Shown: piece after piece, positions 36,651 to 49,332 of the stretch
Layout of the letters: each line of letters begins with the position of its first letter
Numbering within the stretch: position 1 is the first letter of the stretch
NCBI GenBank assembly: GCA_965662895.1
Contig: CBFIJH010000002.1
Span: forward strand, 1-64,000
Reading direction: 5' to 3'
Length of the DNA stretch: 64,000 nt
Source of the DNA: Candidatus Poseidoniaceae archaeon
Lineage (GTDB): Archaea; Thermoplasmatota; Poseidoniia; Poseidoniales; Poseidoniaceae
Translations under genes and position numbers: made by a program
Notes under the pieces: generated by a model
What the model was told of the DNA's origin: nothing
Seen by the model: the letters and a program-made list of their open reading frames with translations, nothing else
The model's database searches: none

Positions 36651-37334
36651 TCACTCAATGGCTTCAAGATGAATCCATTCGTTTTCAAGAGCATGATGCC
36701 AAAGATCTGCTAATCTCATCAAATTGTATGCAGAACGTTCAAACCTTCGAGCAATAAGATTGAGATTCAAACGTCCTTCTCGACCTGCTACGTTTGATTT
36801 CTGTTCTTCAAGTATGGACAGTGAGATCTCTTCGAAAAGGGACTGAATCGACAACCACTGGTCCTTGAGGCCACTTGGCAATTCGGTTAGCTGTAAGAGA
36901 CAAACTTCCAATTGTTCGAGAATGGCGAAAACGCCCAATCCAAGATCCGTGAGTGACCTAGCCAGATGTTCAGGAATTTCCGCACCATCACTCGACGCAT
37001 TGAATGAATCTTGAGCGTTGGCAATATCACGCGCATGACGAGCGAGGCGTTCAATCACATCAATTCCTCGAAGATAACAGGCTACGATTCTCAAGTCCTG
37101 AAGCAGGGGCTGGTTTAGTGTGAGAACCAACAGCAATTCCTGAGATAAATCTTCAGCTTTTCGCTGCGCCTTCATTCTCTTCTTTTGAACAACTTGAGCG
37201 TCAAGCTCTGTTACGTTCGTGATCCCTTTGATTGTCATGGTGTATGCTTGCTTCACGGGTCGGATGAATTCCTCCAAAGCACTGCGGATGATATTCATTC
37301 GAGCATCAAGATTCGTACGGATAGGTGGTGCCAT
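36651..37334 (-). CDS. PhoU-family phosphate transport regulator
   Basis: QPLLQDLRIV...IERLARHARDIA and RRFERSA, a degenerate PhoU repeat pair; adjacent to the pst genes. Confidence 0.85.
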   Translation of the reverse strand: MAPPIRTNLDARMNIIRSALEEFIRPVKQAYTMTIKGITNVTELDAQVVQKKRMKAQRKAEDLSQELLLVLTLNQPLLQDLRIVACYLRGIDVIERLARHARDIANAQDSFNASSDGAEIPEHLARSLTDLGLGVFAILEQLEVCLLQLTELPSGLKDQWLSIQSLFEEISLSILEEQKSNVAGREGRLNLNLIARRFERSAYNLMRLADLWHHALENEWIHLEAIE

Positions 37335-38386
37335 CAAAACACCCCATCGTTTGATTCCATTAAATTCGTTCGCTCTGCCATCATCATATTGATGAGCGTC
37401 TCTGTTAAATCGATACTGTAGCCACACAGTCTACGGACGGTTTCTGAAATCTTGAATTCAACGAGAACAATTCGCGCTCCGTCTTTCGATGACATGAGCT
37501 CTTCCTCATGCGTCTCTAAATCCAACAATTGATCTTTCAGACGCTGCTTTTCCTCGACAAGGACGGACATTTCCTTTGAGTAGGTATTTCGAATAACTGA
37601 GCGCAGGGCAGACAGCCACACTGGAATCGAAGTCATCGGTAGCGTATCCAGAGAAACAGAGACCTCACCGCTGGTTTCGAAGACCAATTTTGCAAAGCGG
37701 TATGCGTGATCGCCCATTCGTTCAAGATAATGTGACATGGCTGCGTGCTGCATGGCTTGGTATCGATCGACCCCAAGAGCACGTTCAATGTGAGGTGAAT
37801 TGAGGGCCATGGCAACCTGACGATCCACGAGTAGACGACGAGCATCAATTTGCCGTTCTCGGTCTTCATGATCGCTGAGTTCTTCAACGTCCTCTCCGGA
37901 AAGAACCCCATAGGAGTCCTCGACCAGGCTGGTCACGAGAAGATACATTCTGTTGAGGCTGACTTGTAGAGGCAGCTCATTCGGATTGAGAAGCGAGACG
38001 ATTGTTATGGAATTGTCCTCATCAAGAGAAATTTCCATCCCTCGGGTGTCACGCAAGAATTGTCGAATGATTCTACGCTCCTTGCTTCCAACCCCAGTTT
38101 TGTCGCGTATCGTTATGTGGTCTGCTCCGCTCACGTAAATTCCAATCAGATAATCGTAAAGAGCTCCGCGTGGGTATTTGGTTAAATCCAAATCGATGCT
38201 GCGCCGAAGGTTTTTGTTTTCCTTTGGAGAGATTTGAATTTCTCCGGAGGATAAATGTTCGATTCCAACGACATCACTTGGTTTCAGATTGTTCTCCGTA
38301 ATCCAGCGTTTCGGTAAGGAAACGATGTACGTCGAACCGCCTGTAACCTGTAGTTTTCTATATTCGACGCCAATGGAAGATTTCAT
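37334..38386 (-). CDS. AbrB-PhoU archaeal phosphate uptake regulator
   Basis: N-terminal RKLQVTGGSTYIVSLPKRW (AbrB-like DNA-binding domain) followed by PhoU repeats (LERMGDHA). Confidence 0.92.
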   Translation of the reverse strand: MKSSIGVEYRKLQVTGGSTYIVSLPKRWITENNLKPSDVVGIEHLSSGEIQISPKENKNLRRSIDLDLTKYPRGALYDYLIGIYVSGADHITIRDKTGVGSKERRIIRQFLRDTRGMEISLDEDNSITIVSLLNPNELPLQVSLNRMYLLVTSLVEDSYGVLSGEDVEELSDHEDRERQIDARRLLVDRQVAMALNSPHIERALGVDRYQAMQHAAMSHYLERMGDHAYRFAKLVFETSGEVSVSLDTLPMTSIPVWLSALRSVIRNTYSKEMSVLVEEKQRLKDQLLDLETHEEELMSSKDGARIVLVEFKISETVRRLCGYSIDLTETLINMMMAERTNLMESNDGVF

Positions 38387-38486: not shown

Positions 38487-38530
38487 CAATGACAATTAGA
38501 GAAACAATCAGCGAGGGTCGGGAAGAGAAT

Positions 38531-41500
38531 ATGTTATCCCTCGATACGAAGAAAAAAGCAATAGCCCTTATTGCCCTTATGATGGTTTCAGCACTAGCTG
38601 GTTGTCTTGGCAATGACGATGACGATACGGATGACTCATCGGATTCGAACAACAATAACGACAATACCAACAACACAACAACTGTTGATGATAATACCGG
38701 TATTGATGTCGGAACGGTGACTTGTGGACCAGATGGTTCCATCAAGATCGCAGGTTCCTCGACGGTATTGCCTCTTGCAGAAATCTGGGCAGAATACTAC
38801 CAAGAGAACTGTGAAGGCGTCACCATCACCGTCGAAAGCGGCGGATCCGGTGGCGGTGCTGGCCGAGTATGTGCCAACTCCGCTAAGGGTACACCTGTCG
38901 ACATTGGTGACATGTCCCGTGACTGGAAAGACACAGAGGCAACACGTGGTGACGATGGTTACACAATGGACTGTCTCGCAGGCGACACTTCTCGCTCCGC
39001 TCGACAAATCCAGGTTGCTATCGATGGATTGTCCGTTGTCATGAAGAAGGGCGGTGCTGCTGACACTTGTGTCAACACACACCTCGGCGGGCTCACTGTC
39101 GATCAACTCCGCTGGATGTTCTCCGCAGAAGCTGACACAGGCTACACACCTGCCAACGATGACGGAGATGCAGTCAAAGAATGGTCCGACCTCGACGCAG
39201 ACTGCGGTGCGGCAGAAATCGTTCTTGCATACCCTGACGCTGACTCTGGTACCTACGAGTACTTCTACGAAACTGTCCTCGATGAGGCTGAAGAAGGATT
39301 CCGATCCGGTACACAGTCCGCTGACGACAACGTTCTCGTCAACACACTGATCGGTGATGAAACCTCGATTGGTTACTTCGGATACGCATACTACCAAGAG
39401 AACATGGCAACCCTCGCTGCTGCTGCAGTCGAGAACAGTGCCGGAAACATGGTTGCTCCAACCTCCACAAGTGTCGGTGACGGAACCTACAACCCACTTT
39501 CCCGCCCATTGTTCATGAATCTCCTCAACGACGAAGATTCCCTCGAGAACACCGTCCCATTCCTCGAATTTGGACTTGGTGACGGAGGCGACCTCCTCGT
39601 TGCTGAAGTAGGATACGTAGCACTCCCTGACTCCCTTGACACTGTCATGGCCAGTCGTCTGGCTGGAGGCGTAGGTGCTTCATTCTGTGGACCAGATGGT
39701 TCCATCTCCATTGCGGGATCCTCCACTGTTCTACCACTTGCCGAAGCATGGGCAGAAGACTACCAAAATGCGTGTGATGGAGTTACCATCACCGTCGAAA
39801 GCGGTGGATCTGGTGGCGGTGCTGGCCGAGTCTGTGCCAACTCCGCTAAGGGTACACCTGTCGACATTGGTGACATGTCCCGTGACTGGAAGAGCACAGA
39901 AGCTGACCGACAGGCAAACGGATTCATCCTCGACTGTCTCGCTGGCGACACATCTCGTGACGCTGCTCAAATCCAGGTTGCTATCGACGGATTGTCCGTT
40001 GTTATGAAGAAGGGTGGCGCTGCTGACACTTGTGTTAACACACACCTCGGCGGACTCACTGTCCACCAACTCCGTTGGATCTTCTCCGCTGAAACCGATG
40101 CTGAACTCGTAGGTGCAGGTTTGGACCTCGGAACTGAAATTGGAAACGATGACGGTGACACAACCCGAGAATGGTCTGACCTCAACGCAAACTGTGGAGA
40201 TGCTGAAATCGTTCTTGCATACCCAGACGCTGACTCTGGTACATACGAGTACTTCTATGAAACAGCACTCGATGAGGCATCTGCAGGATTCCGTGCAGGT
40301 ACACAATCCGCTGACGACAACGTTCTCGTCAACGCTCTAACCGGCGATGAGACCGCTATCGGATACTTCGGATACGCATACTACCAAGAGAACATGGCAA
40401 CACTCGCTGCTGCTGCTATCGAGAACAGTGATGGTAACATGATCACTCCAAACGCCAACAGCGTTCGTGATGGATCCTACAACCCACTCTCTCGACCGCT
40501 CTTCATGAATCTCCTCGTCGATGGTGCAACTCTCGAGAACACCATCCCATTCATGCTCTATGGATTGGACACCGAGGCTGGAAGTCAAGCTGTTGCAGAA
40601 GTTGGATATGTTTCACTGAACGATTACCAAAAGCACCAGATGGTCTTTGGCCGACTCGCTCACCTCCAAGGGTTCACAACAGAAGGCAACGACCACATCT
40701 TCGAAGACATGTGTGCCGCAGCAGGAAGCATCTCCATTGCTGGTTCGTCAACTGTTCTACCACTTGCTGAAGCATGGGCAGAAGATTACCAAGAAATCTG
40801 TGGTGACACATCCATCACCGTCGAAAGCGGTGGATCTGGTGCTGGTGCTGGCCGAGTTTGTGCCAACTCCGCGAAGGGTACACCTGTCGACATTGGTGAC
40901 ATGTCCCGAGACTGGAAGAGCACAGAAGGTAGCGTTGACGCAAACGGACAACTCAACTGTCTTGTCGGTGACACATCCATTACCGTAACACAACTTGTTG
41001 TTGCAGTCGACGGATTGTCGGTTGTCTCCAAGAAGGGCGGTGCTGCTGACGTTTGTATGCAAAACATGGGCGGTATGACCGCTGCTCAACTCCGATGGGT
41101 CTTCTCTGCTGAGACAGACACTGAGTTGACCGCAGCTGGCCTCGTTCTCTCCAGTGTTGTCCCTAATGATGACGGAGACGGGGTCAAGGAATGGTCCGAT
41201 CTCAGCGCAAACTGTGGCTCAAATGCAATTGTTCTCGCATACCCTGATGCAGACTCTGGAACATACGAGTACTTCTACGAAGAAATCCTCCACGAGGCTG
41301 CTGCTGGATTCGGAACCGGTACACAATCGTCTGATGACAACGTATTGGTCAACGCAATCCTCGGTGATGAGCATGCAATTGGATACTTCGGATACGCATA
41401 CTACCAAGAGAACATGGCAACACTCGGTGCTGTTGCTGTCTCCAACAACCATACACATGGTGTTGCAGACGCTCCTGAAGACGCTGTGGCCCCAACACCA

Positions 41501-41716
41501 CAGACTGTTCGAGACGGAAGCTACGCACCGTTGTCCCGACCGTTGTTCATGAACGTGAACAACGATGCTTGGGACAAAGTCAGCCCATTCCTCCAGTGGG
41601 CGTTCTCTGGGGACGGTAGCGCTGTCATCTCAGAGGTCGGTTACGTACCTCTGGATGACGCCACGTACCAAGAGATGATTCGACGTATCCTCGCAGAGGG
41701 CGTCTACGCTGCTTGA
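38531..41716 (+). CDS. pstS: Phosphate-binding lipoprotein with three tandem PstS domains
   Basis: Lipobox LAGC; three copies each of IAGSSTVLP, ESGGSG.G, DIGDMSR, A(I/V)DGLSVV, DSGTYEYF, IGYFGYAYY and Y.PLSRPLF. Confidence 0.93.
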   Translation: MLSLDTKKKAIALIALMMVSALAGCLGNDDDDTDDSSDSNNNNDNTNNTTTVDDNTGIDVGTVTCGPDGSIKIAGSSTVLPLAEIWAEYYQENCEGVTITVESGGSGGGAGRVCANSAKGTPVDIGDMSRDWKDTEATRGDDGYTMDCLAGDTSRSARQIQVAIDGLSVVMKKGGAADTCVNTHLGGLTVDQLRWMFSAEADTGYTPANDDGDAVKEWSDLDADCGAAEIVLAYPDADSGTYEYFYETVLDEAEEGFRSGTQSADDNVLVNTLIGDETSIGYFGYAYYQENMATLAAAAVENSAGNMVAPTSTSVGDGTYNPLSRPLFMNLLNDEDSLENTVPFLEFGLGDGGDLLVAEVGYVALPDSLDTVMASRLAGGVGASFCGPDGSISIAGSSTVLPLAEAWAEDYQNACDGVTITVESGGSGGGAGRVCANSAKGTPVDIGDMSRDWKSTEADRQANGFILDCLAGDTSRDAAQIQVAIDGLSVVMKKGGAADTCVNTHLGGLTVHQLRWIFSAETDAELVGAGLDLGTEIGNDDGDTTREWSDLNANCGDAEIVLAYPDADSGTYEYFYETALDEASAGFRAGTQSADDNVLVNALTGDETAIGYFGYAYYQENMATLAAAAIENSDGNMITPNANSVRDGSYNPLSRPLFMNLLVDGATLENTIPFMLYGLDTEAGSQAVAEVGYVSLNDYQKHQMVFGRLAHLQGFTTEGNDHIFEDMCAAAGSISIAGSSTVLPLAEAWAEDYQEICGDTSITVESGGSGAGAGRVCANSAKGTPVDIGDMSRDWKSTEGSVDANGQLNCLVGDTSITVTQLVVAVDGLSVVSKKGGAADVCMQNMGGMTAAQLRWVFSAETDTELTAAGLVLSSVVPNDDGDGVKEWSDLSANCGSNAIVLAYPDADSGTYEYFYEEILHEAAAGFGTGTQSSDDNVLVNAILGDEHAIGYFGYAYYQENMATLGAVAVSNNHTHGVADAPEDAVAPTPQTVRDGSYAPLSRPLFMNVNNDAWDKVSPFLQWAFSGDGSAVISEVGYVPLDDATYQEMIRRILAEGVYAA
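38722..41690 (+). repeat. Three ~1-kb internal direct repeats (PstS domains)
   Basis: Units start near 38722, 39686 and 40712; long identical nucleotide stretches are shared between units. Confidence 0.9.
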
Positions 41717-41897: not shown

Positions 41898-44339
41898 ATG
41901 CGAATACGAGCCCGAATCGAAGAAGGCGCCCCCGGGTTGGTGCTCTTCGCCCTCGCTGCAACCGTTGTTATGATTACATCGGGAATTGTCTACGTACTGT
42001 TCGACAATGGTTCGAAATTCTATCGTGGCTTCGCTTGTGGCGCAGATGACTTCAAACCTCCACAAGATTGGGATGAAGATCTCAAAGCCAGCATCAAAGA
42101 CGCTGCGAACTATTCCGACGGTTCCATATCAGACCCGCTCTGGTTGAATTCGTTGTGCATTACAGAGTTCGATATGGATCACGAAGTCGTATTGGCTGAT
42201 CCATTGATTGATCGTTTCCAATGGGACGTTGATGCGAAATCCTATCCTGAAGGAGACGATCGTGAAGCTTCGGTGTTCACGCTGGAAGATGGGACAGAAA
42301 TACGTGGGCCGCGAGTCGATGAAGGGCGGCCATATCTAACCGATTATTTCACTCAAAATCCAGACAAATGGGATTCTGAATATCCTACGATCCCTCTCGG
42401 CGTTATTTCTGCCAATGAGAAAGCCCTCATTCTCCACACTCAGAACCCTGACCTGGCCCGTGAGTGGTGGGTCACAATATGGATTGGAGATGATGATGTA
42501 CGCATTGACATGGAAAACTTCTCCCTCGGACTGACCGAGTATTCCATGGGAGCCGTGTACAAAGAAGGTGATTTTGCCCGAGTTGAAGTTGATACCTATT
42601 GTGGGTTTGAAGAAGAGAACCAGGAATCGCTGAACACGATGCTTACAGATGCTGGAATTGAGGTTGTCGACGATTGTTTCACACTTGAGAACCACCTCTA
42701 CCCAAACATCCACGCTCAAGCATCTTCGGATGGGCTGGATGTTGAAACTGAATACCTCGCTTACAAAGCAAATGGATTCCATAAACCAGAGATTGGTGAT
42801 GAGCTGGGCAATGGTTCAACCGCATGGAACCTTGTTGGAGATGCAGACCTCCCGTACGATTACGATCAAGACGGCGTATGGAACACCAAATCCGACGGAC
42901 AAGGTGGCCTTGCAGACAACGATATCGATGGGGATGGAATTGCCAACAAAGTCGACCATGATATGGACAACGATGGCATTCCGAACGCGTATGATAGCGA
43001 CCCGGTGCTTCCTAACGTTGACTGGGTTGGTATTCTTTTGGCATTGCTTACGCTCGGTGTTGTTGCTGGCGCTTATCTGAGTCCGCAGTGGCTGCCCAAA
43101 CTCAGCATAGAAACCATCGATGCAACCATCCCCACCCTCAAGAGCGTAGCCTATCTTGTTGTCTTGATTGGTTTCATGTCGCTTATCAGTCCACCAAGCG
43201 GTATACTCCTGATGACACTGCTTGCTTTGATGGTTATTCTCACGGTTTTGATTCGCCGTATCGATGGAGGGTATCCCATGCCTCTCATCGCAATCGGCCT
43301 TACTTCGCTCTTCTTCGCACTCTTCTCCATCCACAAAATTCAAACAGGCCATACCATCTTCCTTGGCGGAGCGATGATCTTCATGTCCAACGTCATCAGC
43401 GATACCAGAAACCAAGCGGGCGTCGAACGAACGGCAATTATGGAGGGCGATTCTCGTTCATTGATGACACTCATCATTCTCGTTACGTTCATGCTTTGCT
43501 ACTTTGATTTCGTCGCCCGAGTAAACGGGTCCCTCGGAGAGTTCCTCACCCAGACATGGTGGAAGACGGACGTTCGTACCGTGAGCGTCGTTACTGTTGG
43601 TGAAGACCTGCACATGGGTGTCAATTCGTTGTTGCAAACGACACTGCAGGTTGCGCTCGGGGCTCTCGTTATCGCTATCCCAATCGGATTGGGAACTGCG
43701 ATTTACCTCTCCGAATACGCAAGCCAACGAACTGCAAACTTTGTCAAACCGATTCTCGAACTGCTTGCTGGTATTCCATCGGTCGTTTACGGATTCTTTG
43801 CTTTCGTGGTTATCGCTCCAATTGTGGTTGATGTCGGAACGTATTTCTTGGAACGTGGCTGGATTGCTGAAGAACCCCAACTGTTCAATCCACTGAGCGG
43901 TGCAATCGTTGTTGGAATTATGATCACACCACTGATCGCTTCCCTTTCTGAGGACGCACTGCGAGCCGTTCCAGACAACCTTCGCCAAGCATCCTACGCA
44001 CTTGGTGCTACGCCTGTTGAGACAACTGCTCGAGTTACCGTTCCATCGGCGCTTTCAGGAATTCTTGCATCGATTATCCTCGCTCTCTCACGAGCGATTG
44101 GGGAAACAATGGCAGTCACATTGTCTGTAGGAACACTCGCCACTTATTCGAACAACATGTTCCGAAGTGCGCAAACAATGACGGCATACATTGCCCAACG
44201 AATCGGTGGCGAACTCCCGATTGGAACAACTCCGTATTACTCACTCTTCGCTGTCGGATTCTATCTCTTCTTTATCACACTAGGGCTGAATCTCATCGGC
44301 CATAGAATCATGACGCGATTCCGGGAGGCGTACGATTGA
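41898..44339 (+). CDS. pstC: Phosphate ABC permease PstC, greatly extended
   Basis: C-terminal core IPIGLGTAIYLSEYA, KPILELLAGIPSVVYG, SEDALRAVP...ASYALGA and SRAIGETMAV; about 340-aa acidic insert and extra TM helices. Confidence 0.92.
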   Translation: MRIRARIEEGAPGLVLFALAATVVMITSGIVYVLFDNGSKFYRGFACGADDFKPPQDWDEDLKASIKDAANYSDGSISDPLWLNSLCITEFDMDHEVVLADPLIDRFQWDVDAKSYPEGDDREASVFTLEDGTEIRGPRVDEGRPYLTDYFTQNPDKWDSEYPTIPLGVISANEKALILHTQNPDLAREWWVTIWIGDDDVRIDMENFSLGLTEYSMGAVYKEGDFARVEVDTYCGFEEENQESLNTMLTDAGIEVVDDCFTLENHLYPNIHAQASSDGLDVETEYLAYKANGFHKPEIGDELGNGSTAWNLVGDADLPYDYDQDGVWNTKSDGQGGLADNDIDGDGIANKVDHDMDNDGIPNAYDSDPVLPNVDWVGILLALLTLGVVAGAYLSPQWLPKLSIETIDATIPTLKSVAYLVVLIGFMSLISPPSGILLMTLLALMVILTVLIRRIDGGYPMPLIAIGLTSLFFALFSIHKIQTGHTIFLGGAMIFMSNVISDTRNQAGVERTAIMEGDSRSLMTLIILVTFMLCYFDFVARVNGSLGEFLTQTWWKTDVRTVSVVTVGEDLHMGVNSLLQTTLQVALGALVIAIPIGLGTAIYLSEYASQRTANFVKPILELLAGIPSVVYGFFAFVVIAPIVVDVGTYFLERGWIAEEPQLFNPLSGAIVVGIMITPLIASLSEDALRAVPDNLRQASYALGATPVETTARVTVPSALSGILASIILALSRAIGETMAVTLSVGTLATYSNNMFRSAQTMTAYIAQRIGGELPIGTTPYYSLFAVGFYLFFITLGLNLIGHRIMTRFREAYD

Positions 44340-47300
44340 CGAAACAAAAAATCGACCTTTCCGACAAAGGGTTGTTTGGAACCTCCTTGTTGCCAAAGCG
44401 CTCATTGAAGCGCCGGTATCTTGCTGCAAAGACTGGCAAGACCGTGTTTGTTGCCATTGCCATAACATGTGGAATCATTCTCGTCACGCTCCTGACGCAA
44501 ATTTCCAGTGAAGCCTTCGTACCAACAGAAGAATTTGAAGTCGAGCGAAGTGAAACGTACTCAGAGAAGGGGACCAATTCCGGCGTGTTTTATCACAAGC
44601 CCGCTGAAACGCAACTTTCCTGGGAAGCTGAGACATGGAATCCAAATTGGGCTGAAGACGACTTACGCCAAGAACGCGAAAACATCACAATACAAGCTTC
44701 ATGGACGGAGCGTCATTTCCAAGCCTACAACGATGCAGGAGATACCTTCGTTCAAAACGGACAAGACACGTGGGATCTTGAAGAGGACCTCGAGCGCGCC
44801 CTGTGCGATGAAGGGGTTGCTAAAACCACCTACAGGCCGGTCGAACCATGGTCGCTCTCCCACCTTTTGCTCATCGGATCTGCCGACGAATACGAATACA
44901 AACTTGGTGAAGATTGGCGAATTACAATCTATTGGAGAGAGACTGCGCCGACGCCAAATCTCGGAAATTACTGGATTCATATTGATGACAACGACACGTC
45001 CGATGTCAGTGATGATGAGATCATCGAGCGATACGTCTGGCGGGGGCTTCGATGGGAAGTTGTTGGTGAAGACGCCTACCTCGACGAGGCAATGGCCCTT
45101 GCCGGCGATGATCAGTCCACATGGGGCGATGGGAAAATCCGACTCATTTACCGTCAAATCCCATGGACAGGATGGCAAAATGGAGATTTGTTGTTCTACA
45201 ATACGGGACAGGGTACACCTGTCGTTGCTGTTAGCCAGAAAAACATGCCAGACATCCCACTTGACGCAATCAACCCCATCCTCCTCAACCCCGCAGAGAA
45301 CATCAAATCCTTCGTACCTGAATTTTGTACAATGGAAGAGACATCAAAATACATTCTCGATGAAGGGCTCACTGGAAGTTACGTGATCGGTGAAGTCACC
45401 AACGACGATGGATACGTCATCGAAGAGTTGGACGATTCGGGACTATCGGTCATTGCTGAACTTACGATTGCGATTTCTGAAACTGGAGAAGGTCATGATG
45501 AATGGGTCATGATTGACAATCGTGGATTCATCAACTACGACCACGATAACGATGGATACGGAAACATGTTCTGGGATTTAGACAGTGACGGCGATGGTGT
45601 CTGTGATTATTACCCCGAAGAAATACCAGGCGGTCCGTTCAAGTGCAGCAAAGCAGATGGTCCACTTACCGAAGATACAAATCAAGACGGTCGAATTGAC
45701 ATCAACGACTACGGCGAAAATCCTGTCGATTACGGCGTCGAAGTCATCGAAGATACGGACTCCATCTATCACACTCGGACAACGGACGCACTGATTTTGA
45801 GTCCATCTCGAAGTTCTGATAATTGGCTGTATATTCTTCATGACCTGAACTATACAGTAACGATTCAACAAAATTCAGGGCCGCCAATGGATGCAAAAGA
45901 ATCCTCCTACCAAGAAATAGGTGGATTCGCCCTTGGAAGCCCAGTCGATTGGTTCCAGCCAAAATTCATCGGCGATGATGACTTTGACAACGATGGTACC
46001 ATTGATGTCTGTGATGATGATATCGACCAAGATGGAGACAGCAACCCAGTCTATGGTGACGCAGAGAAGTGCCCTGATGCGTACGAATGGATTGAACAGA
46101 AAAATTCCACCCTCGATGCTCTACGTGGGCAGTTGGAATCCATCGATACAAACACTGATGAGTATACAAGAATCTCGGATTTGATCAGTGAAATCGAAGA
46201 TTCAGATTTCGCACTCTTTGTCCATCTTCACGACGAAAACGGAGACGGCGTCCACGATGATGCAAAAGATCGTGATATCGATGGTGATGGTGTTCCCAAC
46301 CTCATCGATGGCCAGGGGACATGGGCAGGACGCTCAATGACTTCTCCATTTTCCGCAGAAGAACAAGAGGCAATCAACCTCTATGTCGAGGAACTCAAAG
46401 AAACCAAGTGCAGTGACACCTACAAGAAAAGCAGCCTGGAGTATGCATCAAAGGATTGCAGTAATGCAAAGGAATTGAACAATTCAAAACCAACAACGCC
46501 TCAGCAATTCTGTGATGGGATTCGTACCCTCAACCAACAGGATTGGTTGATCAGTTGCGCAGCACCCATCAATCATGAATCTGGAGAAGAAATCCTGGAA
46601 CATCGAAACCCTTGGTTACCACTCACTGCTATGATCGGGCTTGTTGGAATGATTGCCATTATGAGGACACCAGAATGGGCCATTCAGAAACTGCGCAACG
46701 GAATGATTTGGATTGGAACCAAAGAAGTTGAATCTGAGAAGTTCACCATGTATTCCTGGTTTTCATACACAAGCGAATTCACAAATCGTTTGATCAGTGT
46801 TCTCCTACGCCTGATTTTCACAGTCATAGGCGGATTGATTTTCTTCTCAACGTTCTCGGATTCTCAACCTGTTCTTCTCGTTCCATTCACCTTCATTATC
46901 GGAGGCGCAGTCACTCTGATGGCGTCAATTGCCCTCGTTTCTGCGGTAATGGACATCGTCCGTTTGAGACCTGAGAAAGTCATTCCAAAAGCAGAGGGTG
47001 TCGTCGATGTTATACTACTGGGCGCTACATTACTTACATGGTACATCGCCATCACATGGGCTCTCGTTGAAGGGTGGATTGTTGGCGGAATCCTCCTTCT
47101 GTTCATTCTTTCAGGTGTTAAGAAACTCGTTCTTGGTGCCTTGCAATTGACGCGTTCAAACACGTTCAAGGACGACCGTCTTCGGCTCGTCGTAAAAGGA
47201 AGAGATGGTTGGCTGATGGCGGCATTTGTCATCCTTGTTATCGCCTTCATTTCCATACCAATAAGCATCCATATCCCATTCATTTGGTCAGATTTTACTT

Positions 47301-48163
47301 CTTCTGAGCCATACAAAGCAGGTTTGCGTGCTGCATTCTGGGGAAGCGTCTATGTGGTGACCTACACGATGCTGTTTGCCATTCCATTATCGCTTGGAGC
47401 TGCAATCTGGCTCGAAGAATACGCACCAAACAACCGATTCCGAAGGGCAATTCAGGCACTTATCACCAATCTTGCAGGTGTACCTGCAATCGTTTTCGGT
47501 CTGTTTGGCCTTGCCCTTTTCCTCACCGATCGGGGAATCGGACTGGGGCTCGGAGGCACAGTCCTGACTGCAGGAATGACCATGGCAACAATGGCCATGC
47601 CAACCATCGTCATCTCATCACAAGAAGCCCTGCGTGCCGTTCCGCCATCGCTTCGTAACGCTGCATTCGGCTTAGGATGTACGAAGTGGCAAGTGACCAA
47701 AGATCACGTTCTACCGCACGCCATGCCTGGAATGATGACGGGAACCATTCTCGCCATGTCAAGAATCATGGGTGAAGCAGCTCCATTGATTCTTGTCGGG
47801 GCTGTTGCGTCTGTCTTTACCGAACCAGATGCGTTCTTCTACATCTCCTACGACTTTGCTCCGAACTTTGATTATCTCTTTGCATGGATTCCTGGCGTTG
47901 AACCATACTTGCAAAACCTTCCGTTCTGGGCAGATCGTGAATTGTTCTCCGCAGATCCAAGTGCATACACTGGTGCCGATACAAACGACCGTGGAGCGTA
48001 CACTGTTCTCCCAGTACAGGTTTATCGATGGACAGACATGCCTGCTACAGGATTCAAGGTTGCAGCAGCAGGAGCGTCCATCGTCCTCCTCGGTACGCTG
48101 CTTGTCGTCAATTCTGCTGCCATTCTTCTCCGTGCTCACTTCAGGAGGTATTCGAACACATGA
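44336..48163 (+). CDS. pstA: Phosphate ABC permease PstA, greatly extended
   Basis: Core [34 protein letters not shown]...AAFGLG and [10 protein letters not shown]; about 700-aa acidic insert; TTG start overlaps the pstC stop. Confidence 0.92.
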
Positions 48164-49332
48164 CGAACAAATCAGATAAAAAAATGCTAACAGTCGGTGA
48201 CTTGTTCACCATGATGAACAAACTTGTTGAAGTGGATGGTGTCGTCGGCGAAGACGGGTTGGTGCACATCGAGACCATCAAGAAAGATCTCGGAAGTGAA
48301 GACGATGAAATCTCCTCAGGCGAAGCGATGAGCATTCTCACTTCTCTCGCTGCTTCAGACTCGGATGAAAGCGATGAAGAGATGCTTGCTATACGCGAGA
48401 TGATCGATTCATATTTTCAAGAATCAAATGCTGAAGAAGAGGAATCCGATGAACCCAACAAAGTCGCCGAAGAGAGTGACGAACAAGAAGAAGATAATAC
48501 GGAAGAGGAGGAAGCAGAAGACGCCGCATCGCCCGAAGAGGACATTCCAGACTCAACACGTAACCTTGACATTGGCGGCGATGCCCACATGTGGATTCAT
48601 GATTTGGATTTGCATTATGGAAATGCACAGGCCATCTACAACGTATCAATTCCGTTTGAACGAAATGCTGTTACAGCATTGATTGGGCCATCAGGTTGCG
48701 GGAAATCGACGCTGCTTCGTTGTCTCAATCGAATGAATGACCTCATTTCAATTTGCAAGATCGACGGGAAAATTGAACTCGAAGATGACAACATCATGAC
48801 CCGTGGTGCCGATTTGGTGACAATTCGTCGACGCGTTGGAATGGTTTTCCAAAAGCCAAACCCATTCCCGAAGTCCATCTACGACAATGTTGCATACGGC
48901 GTTCGATTGCACTACAATCCAAGCCGTCGAGAATTGGACCGCATTGTCGAAAGTGCTCTGCGAAGAGCAGCTTTGTGGGATGAAGTCAGCGATCGACTTC
49001 ACGAACTCGGGACAAGTCTCTCGGGTGGCCAACAGCAACGACTTTGCATCGCCCGAACAATTGCAGTTGAACCTGAAGTCATTCTTATGGACGAACCATG
49101 CTCAGCACTCGATCCAATTGCAACGGCAAAAATCGAAGAATTGATTCTCGAATTGAAGAAACACTTCACAGTTGTAATTGTCACACACTCGATGTCTCAA
49201 GCGCAACGTGTTAGTGACTACACGGCGTTCATGTACCTCGGTCGACTGGTTGAATTCGATAAAACCCCAGTCATTTTTGGTGATCCGAACATGGAATTGA
49301 CACGTCGATACATTTCTGGTCGTTTCGGTTGA
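48160..49332 (+). CDS. pstB: Phosphate ABC ATPase PstB with a ~140-aa N-terminal extension
   Basis: [53 protein letters not shown] and YISGRFG; AGGAGG upstream and ATGA overlap with pstA. Confidence 0.96.

Follow-up and report, generated by a model that had tools for sequence, protein, structure and literature searches.

In MalFGK2 of Escherichia coli, a type I ABC importer, the permease MalF carries a large extracytoplasmic domain, P2, along with extra N-terminal helices. P2 is an Ig-like domain of about 185 aa located between the third and fourth transmembrane (TM) helices, and it is present on one subunit. The parts of a published account that deal with this domain state that MalE binds to the P2 loop and remains there throughout the transport cycle, and they also mention a MalE-MalF fusion in B. 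bacteriovorus (PMC6906923). In this work we analyzed the pst operon of an archaeon from the order Poseidoniales (Marine Group II), which lies on the + strand of a 64,000-nucleotide stretch of DNA (positions 1 to 64,000 of contig CBFIJH010000002.1, assembly GCA_965662895.1; hereafter, the window) in the order PstS-PstC-PstA-PstB. Its PstA permease is a giant protein of 1275 aa (44336-48163, + strand) for which MalF P2 is the best functional analogy. Unlike MalF P2, however, the predicted outside domains of the archaeal transporter measure about 705 aa in PstA and about 341 aa in PstC, are found on both permease subunits, are located between an added first helix (TM0) and five added helices, and contain DxDxDG loops and conserved cysteines. 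The reading that we prefer, to which we nonetheless grant somewhat less than an even chance, follows the P2 analogy: the ectodomains would form a scaffold, braced by Ca2+ and disulfides, on which a tethered triple PstS docks.

Other known systems share single features with this operon. In GlnPQ and OpuA, the substrate-binding domains are fused to the permease. These transporters and the MalE-MalF fusion also keep several binding domains at the transporter, at a higher local concentration, but here the three PstS domains form a separate, lipobox-bearing protein and Pfam found no PBP family in the Pst permease ectodomains. DUF3333 (PF11812) is an N-terminal domain found on long bacterial PstA proteins and represents another N-terminal addition to a Pst permease; PF11812, however, had no match in this genome or among the Pfam hits of PstA, while it did have matches in two control genomes. 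Thrombospondin type 3 (TSP3) repeats (PF02412; PF18884 for the bacterial form) bind Ca2+ and stiffen the domain to which they belong. They resemble the PstA ectodomain in that DxDxDG-type loops follow one another in runs, with paired cysteines at their flanks, but PstA has two loop pairs only, within an otherwise unrelated domain.

Marine Group II is among the most abundant groups of archaea in the phosphate-poor surface ocean, and its phosphate uptake is known from automatic gene names only. The giant proteins are in fact filed in public databases under the automatic names "PstA" and "PstC". Our literature search found no description of the additions of about 960 residues to PstA and about 520 residues to PstC. 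The main text of Rinke et al. (PMC6461757), as far as it bears on this subject, mentions high-affinity phosphate transporters in passing, and its supplements may say more.

Architecture and topology of the giant PstA

The protein is a member of the PstA family. Its six-helix core scores above the curated equivalog cut-off of TIGR00974 (210.6 bits against 193.45, with residues 962-1270 aligned to profile positions 16-271) and matches BPD_transp_1 in Pfam (E = 2.3e-18), and its neighbors on the same strand are PstS, PstC and PstB. The open frame has a TTG start that overlaps the PstC stop, and the homologues start at the same position. Because TIGR00974 aligns from residue 962, the helix at residues 959-979 is TM1 of the core, and the first 958 residues or so are an N-terminal extension that precedes a complete core (47210-48163) rather than an insert within it. 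The giant PstA is not an assembly artefact, since a single 5278-nt contig of a DNA run covers positions 41937-47214 with 16 differences, and 17 runs contain half or more of the words sampled from the sequence. One metatranscriptomic run contributed contigs with 0-2 differences on 45359-45552 (ectodomain), 46642-46891 (extra helices) and 48248-48428 (the N-terminal extension of PstB); contigs from such a library indicate presence and are not proof of transcription, as DNA may be carried over.

The extension begins with a K/R-rich cytoplasmic tail (residues 1-35) and the signal-anchor helix TM0 (residues 36-56), both encoded within 44336-44503. An ectodomain of about 705 aa follows (residues 57-760), and then five extra TM helices (residues 761-958, 46616-47209), located at about 761-785, 819-838, 848-871, 888-909 and 912-931, take the chain back to the cytoplasm. 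The tail contains 10 K+R residues, the alternate loops between the helices contain 4, 4 and 6, and the two short loops on the ectodomain side contain 0 and 0. This positive-inside pattern is the reason to place the 705-residue domain outside the cell; TM0 and the five extra helices would bring core TM1 in from the cytoplasmic side, as in an ordinary PstA. The extracytoplasmic location is thus a prediction from loop charge, and the eight invariant cysteines described below fit an oxidizing, extracellular environment. The composition of the domain also matches that of the other large, very acidic open frames of the genome that are rich in DxDxDG motifs. N-glycosylation sequons do not serve as a marker of outside location (5 observed against 4.9 expected), and two of the sequon residues, N116 and N505, are kept in 24 of the 25 giant PstA proteins that were aligned for all conservation counts in this protein.

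An initial annotation of this locus, made from the sequence, had proposed a first TM helix followed by an acidic extracytoplasmic insert of about 700 aa (44510-46610, which correspond to residues 59-759) and about six extra helices. The first helix was found where TM0 lies, and both the acidic character and the outside placement of the domain are upheld, the latter by the charge pattern and the invariant cysteines. The domain is not an insert, however, but an N-terminal add-on to a whole core, and the extra helices number five, as the sixth is core TM1 according to the TIGR00974 alignment. Acidity is pronounced: residues 57-775 contain 11.8% D and 9.5% E and have a net charge of -108, and an equal per-residue acidity was observed in just 14 of 800 open frames of at least 300 aa from the same genome. 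Two candidate origins for parts of the extension were tried and rejected. Comparison of the extra helices with the core as a possible degenerate duplicate gave an hhalign probability of 0.03%, and the search for internal repeats in residues 57-546, suggested by a GD[FY]W-like motif, gave about 1%.

Loops, cysteines and fold of the PstA ectodomain

Alignment and modeling divide the ectodomain into seven segments. The N-region (residues 57-395, 44504-45520) contains the invariant cysteines C157 and C331 and, within residues 116-391, a body modeled confidently as alpha/beta. A clade-specific sub-insertion (residues 396-480, 45521-45775) includes the loops DHDNDG, DLDSDG and DTNQDG as well as C423 and C437. 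It is followed by a conserved beta module, referred to as the 'mid' module (residues 481-546, 45776-45973), whose invariant alignment columns define the motif NYTVT..Q..GP..DA.E.SY.EIG. Two putative TSP3-like Ca2+ loop pairs, a (residues 547-580, 45974-46075, with C559 and C579) and b (residues 633-661, 46232-46318), are separated by a variable helical hairpin (residues 581-632, 46076-46231) that is enlarged in the window's clade; 46% of the hairpin residues are aligned in other proteins, at 25% identity. The last segment is a membrane-proximal, Cys-rich helical module (residues 662-760, 46319-46615) with C692, C708, C726 and C741. All four of these cysteines lie within the last 50 residues of the ectodomain, in agreement with the Cys-rich end that had been noticed initially.

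The five D-rich strings recorded in the initial annotation are all present in the translation, at residues 402-410, 414-424, 447-458, 547-570 and 633-655. In PstA, D-x-[DN]-x-[DN]-G is matched seven times without overlaps and nine times when overlaps are counted, whereas 5000 shuffles that preserved the composition averaged 0.19 matches and none reached nine. Conservation differs among the strings. DxDxDG is found at residue 549 in 25/25 giant PstAs, and 24/25 keep the motif at 633; at 645 the complete motif is present in 20/25 and DxDxD in 25/25, and the one at 562 is DxDxD in 25/25 with the sixth-position G in 9/25. Eight cysteines of the ectodomain are invariant (25/25), among them C559 and C579 as well as C692, C708, C726 and C741. 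The loop regions are the best conserved parts of the ectodomain, with a mean pairwise identity of 63% for pair a and 70% for pair b, while the other segments range from 25% to 50% and the PstA core reaches 77%. In contrast, the motifs at 402, 414 and 447, together with C423 and C437, sit in a sub-insertion of about 85 residues that was found in 4 of the 25 proteins. Conservation of the motifs among orthologues is therefore a property of the 547-570 and 633-655 regions, and not of the 402-458 cluster.

The family labels that had been attached to these loops were compared to curated profiles. The "EF-hand/dockerin-like" label of the 402-458 region is not sustained: the excised residues 395-465 scored 18.1 bits with EF-hand_1, the cut-off being 25.4, the region is restricted to the four homologues mentioned above, and it was modeled without helices at pLDDT values below 50. 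No dockerin family was detected at E<=10 with the whole domain or the excised 71-aa piece, a search in which the HMMER filters may drop very weak matches. The thrombospondin type-3-like label fared better in one respect, as the loops are of the DxDxDG type and have conserved flanking cysteines, but the excised PstA pieces scored 15.3 and 7.5 bits with Pfam TSP_3, below its cut-off of 25 bits. The whole 721-aa PstA domain gave no TSP_3 match even at E<=10, and among 19 giant PstA members this family surfaced in three, with a best E of 0.013.

Loops of this kind are common in the genome. Three or more DxDxDG motifs were found in 34 of its 4759 open frames, one of which has 38, and these motif-rich frames overlap the most acidic frames of the genome. 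This abundance favors another explanation, that the ectodomains use the usual Ca2+-loop modules to fix the transporter in the surface layer or glycocalyx, or to span the gap between membrane and surface layer, without a direct role for PstS. Neighbors of the ectodomain in a protein atlas point in the same direction, as they are TSP_3 / PGF-CTERM surface proteins of Thermoplasmatota; their score of 0.80 is a lead only, since shuffled proteins reach this range one-third of the time. In addition, the sections of Rinke et al. that discuss thrombospondin-type genes (PMC6461757) describe them as widely distributed in Poseidoniales and interpret them as adhesion factors. However, the non-repeat parts of the ectodomain have no paralogue among the other proteins of the genome, which speaks against an envelope module held in common. 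Moreover, the domain was found on Pst permeases only, where it travels with the triplication of PstS. We consider a role as envelope spacer or anchor unlikely. Several very large frames of the same genome, of 1877-2669 aa and with 27-38 DxDxDG motifs each (for example, C2:184447-192453, C3:46655-52285 and C5:121174-127626), probably correspond to the surface proteins with thrombospondin repeats that have been reported in this order.

Family searches returned little for the remainder of the ectodomain. No Pfam family matched the PstA domain, even at E<=10, and in the 19 giant members Pfam found nothing beyond BPD_transp_1 and the weak TSP_3 matches, and thus no hydrolase family, whether phosphatase, nuclease or other. 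No mineral-binding or catalytic family was found in the PstA domain, and the invariant alignment columns do not include a His/Asp metal-center pattern. These searches bear on a second alternative, in which an acidic, cation-loaded domain faces the substrate and concentrates or releases phosphate (from Ca- or Mg-phosphate, particles or organic phosphorus), or acts as an electrostatic funnel or selectivity filter, for instance, against arsenate. A net charge of -108 and many candidate Ca2+ sites would certainly hold a dense cloud of divalent cations, and the RNA library covers PstS with very deep contigs, although depth cannot rank genes. On the other hand, neither a hydrolase family nor an invariant metal center was identified, and only full neutralization would keep so negative a surface from repelling phosphate. 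Seawater contains about 10 mM Ca2+, a vast excess over a few protein sites, so a handful of them would be saturated and structural; moreover, the phosphate of the surface ocean is not a Ca-phosphate mineral. A substrate-facing role is, in our opinion, quite improbable. The release of phosphate from Ca-phosphate by chelation, one of the functions originally suggested for this domain, found no support in these searches, and dissolution of Ca-phosphate by the ectodomain is unlikely.

Searches for structural relatives gave similar results. A sequence search of the Protein Data Bank (PDB) with the PstA domain yielded 0 matches at E<=1. Matches of residues 541-665 to the C-terminal helices of flagellin (PDB, E 1-2), which fall on the clade-specific helical insertion (residues 579-629, 46070-46225), were rejected as a chance coiled-coil resemblance. 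An AlphaFold2 model of the ectodomain built from 19 sequences had a mean pLDDT of 62.3 and a pTM of 0.41. Its confident part is a mixed alpha/beta body at model residues 60-335, equivalent to PstA residues 116-391; along ectodomain residues 61-320 the mean pLDDT of 10-residue blocks lay largely within 73-89 but fell to 63 and 45 in two places. The helices of the 581-632 hairpin reached 76-87 and those of the Cys-rich base 72-90, while the 396-480 sub-insertion stayed below 50. Foldseek comparison of this model to the PDB returned nothing at E<=0.001 (best E 0.45). The VIA fold lists were filled by one helical hairpin, with the N-region barely probed. The alpha/beta N-region, of about 280 residues, may be a fold without a solved relative; we advance this suggestion tentatively and jointly with the view, considered below, that the operon encodes a distinct grade of importer.

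The uneven conservation of the ectodomain could also be taken as the mark of a fast-evolving surface decoration, shaped by an arms race with viruses or grazers (receptor masking or decoy) and without any transport function. Nested clade-specific insertions are found in PstA (residues 396-480 and 581-632) and in PstC (about 115 aa), one genome, G099, has a different large insertion, and identity outside the loops is low. Large conserved blocks, eight invariant cysteines and strongly conserved loops argue instead for a maintained fold with a function, and Foldseek against the BFVD viral models found nothing at E<=0.001 (best E 0.055). This explanation appears highly improbable.

The partner subunits and the Pst operon types

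PstC (813 aa, 41898-44339, + strand) follows the same plan. TM0 (residues 13-35) precedes an acidic ectodomain of 341 aa (residues 36-376, 42003-43025), five extra TM helices (residues 377-503) and a core recognized by TIGR02138 at residues 524-808 (245.8 bits). Three TSP3-like DxDxDG loops (residues 321-366, 42858-42995) are located directly before the first extra helix, and they are conserved in 13/13, 11/13 and 13/13 homologues, as are C47 and C87 (13/13). The TSP_3 score was 15.6 bits within the whole ectodomain and 26.1 bits, against the cut-off of 25, on an excised 57-aa piece. A full model of PstC was poor (mean pLDDT 52.5) and its Foldseek list (best E 0.44) is not meaningful. Comparison of the PstA and PstC ectodomains showed that they share the loops alone (hhalign probabilities of 83% and 61% over 32-33 columns, the former for loop pair b of PstA), and homology between the extra helices of the two subunits was discarded (hhalign probability 0.2%). 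Since the ectodomains have only the loops in common and the extra helices are unrelated, PstA and PstC were elaborated in parallel from different material with the same loop module. In the window's clade, PstC has an additional insertion of about 115 residues (residues ~205-320, 42510-42860) with C235 and C260, present in 5 of 13 homologues, which parallels the clade-specific insertions of PstA.

The substrate-binding protein PstS (1075 aa, 38489-41716, + strand) is a triple fusion. A lipobox-like LAGC is followed by an acidic, D/N/T-rich linker of low complexity and then by three tandem phosphate-binding domains, each detected as one of three stretches of Pfam PBP_like_2 and of TIGR02136 (479.8 bits), with 61-77% mutual identity. 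PstB (48160-49332, + strand) was identified by TIGR00972 (383.3 bits, residues 188-434 of the long frame). Its start is likely the ATG at 48160, where an ATGA overlaps the PstA stop and a GGAGG lies upstream. From this start PstB has a very acidic N-terminal extension of about 140 aa (48160-48580), which was detectable in three of the five other giant-type loci searched (G014, G182 and G104).

Homologues of the PstA ectodomain were found in PstA proteins of Poseidoniales only. A query with this domain produced 10 matches in 5.8 billion proteins and 10 in 1.84 billion cluster representatives, all of them PstA-length proteins or short fragments, and when the core was used to look for longer proteins, the list comprised 24 cluster representatives of 1159-1523 aa. 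Within the order the ectodomain occurs in 19 of 201 genomes; leaving aside the genome of the window, the counts by family are 14/99 in f1, 0/2 in f2 and 4/99 in f3. One genome, G172, has two giant-type PstA genes, on its contigs C5 and C56. One database protein, P0066 (1523 aa), is a more distant giant PstA that contains all the ectodomain modules (local HMM scores of 37-74 bits) and a long extra segment amid the added helices; the core tree does not settle its place.

PstA scored over the family cut-off in 51 of the 201 genomes. According to open-frame length, with part of the assignments checked at the sequence level, 18 of them are of a giant type (1090-1403 aa), 24 of a mid type (about 576-676 aa, some cut), 8 are fused PstC-PstA frames (623-752 aa) and 1 is unclear; in one more genome the ectodomain is on a contig that ends before the PstA core. 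The mid-type operons (with a PstA of ~565-585 aa) and the fused ones (623 aa) are found in the same order of organisms as the giant type. All five other giant loci that were fetched keep the arrangement of the window, PstS, PstC with its ectodomain, PstA with ectodomain and helices, and PstB. The number of PstS domains follows the operon type. It is three in five giant loci and two in one (multi-domain in 6/6), one in 12 of 13 mid-type loci (all 12 that were newly fetched, the exception being G018), and one in all six fused loci (five newly fetched plus that of G027). A tblastn search with either ectodomain at 1e-8 found no match in 17/17 mid or fused loci. The fused PstC-PstA-like frame (L019:5357-7225 in G027) was also seen in seven other f3 genomes, and it adjoins a single PstS.

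The mid type offers a hint of the origin of the giant domain. The mid-type PstA of G018 has a TM0, an outside segment of about 165 residues and extra helices before the core. Compared to the outside segment of the giant form, the hhalign probability was 32%, over the N-terminus including TM0, and a local HMM built on the 'mid' module of the giant form scored weakly with mid-type PstAs (13.8-25.3 bits in a 7-sequence database). The giant domain might have grown by accretion around a small ancestor similar to the mid type, although these comparisons hint at that history without establishing it. In a tree of the cores, the giant and mid forms are parted by one branch with support of 94/89, and their cores are 47-49% identical. 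Because the giant cores lie on one side of this single branch, the link between giant permeases and PstS triplication amounts to about one evolutionary event.

A proposed docking scaffold

The arrangement described above suggests a mechanism. The operon encodes a Pst phosphate importer rebuilt within the Poseidoniales lineage, in which PstA and, in parallel, PstC have gained an N-terminal unit that consists of the signal-anchor helix, the acidic ectodomain and five helices beyond those of the core. We view the PstA ectodomain as a structural body comprising the alpha/beta N-region, for which no relative was recognized, the small beta module, the two TSP3-like loop pairs and, by the membrane, the four-cysteine helical base. 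Ca2+ from seawater would occupy the DxDxDG loops at all times and turn them, together with disulfides, into rigid braces; four conserved cysteine pairs would stiffen the ectodomain as well. Located beside the translocation gate, the PstA and PstC ectodomains could then keep the lipid-tethered PstS in place or steer its three domains, which would be passed to the permease one after another once loaded. The large outside domains on both subunits by the gate, and their co-inheritance with a tethered three-domain PstS, suggest a scaffold for docking or marshalling. The initial annotation had considered that the domain scaffolds the triple PstS, an idea that fits the co-occurrence of multi-domain PstS and giant permeases.

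Several observations weigh against this interpretation. The mid-type locus of G018 has at least two PstS domains without belonging to the giant type. The six giant loci are not independent, and their agreement may be plain co-inheritance. The PstA loops score below the TSP_3 cut-off, and Ca2+ binding by them rests on the likeness of the motifs. The model of the ectodomain is only moderately confident, with the D-rich loops below pLDDT 50. Finally, the fast evolution of the ectodomain outside the loops, relative to that of the core, would also suit a role other than transport.

A broader view of the operon is possible, although we lean against it. The system would be a distinct grade of ABC importer in which both permeases were independently extended to 12 helices each, PstS was triplicated and PstB acquired an acidic tail. 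It would work as an extracellular phosphate-capture machine whose ectodomains marshal three binding domains, and the fold of the PstA N-region would be new. If the ectodomains do organize the triple PstS at the gate, they would be a new way to achieve high-affinity capture in cells that lack a closed periplasm, and also a second and much larger example of the MalF P2 principle. The occurrence of three grades of Pst operon (fused, mid and giant) within one order provides a natural comparison for metagenome and metatranscriptome surveys of the ocean against phosphate concentration.

The pst operon of the window is preceded by a divergent gene on the - strand (37334-38386) that encodes a PhoU-type regulator with an N-terminal AbrB/MazE-like domain (Pfam PhoU, 4.3e-11; MazE_antitoxin, 1.9e-10). 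No PhoU match was listed within the stretch fetched from G067. A PhoU-type gene adjoins the operon in four of the five other giant-type loci.

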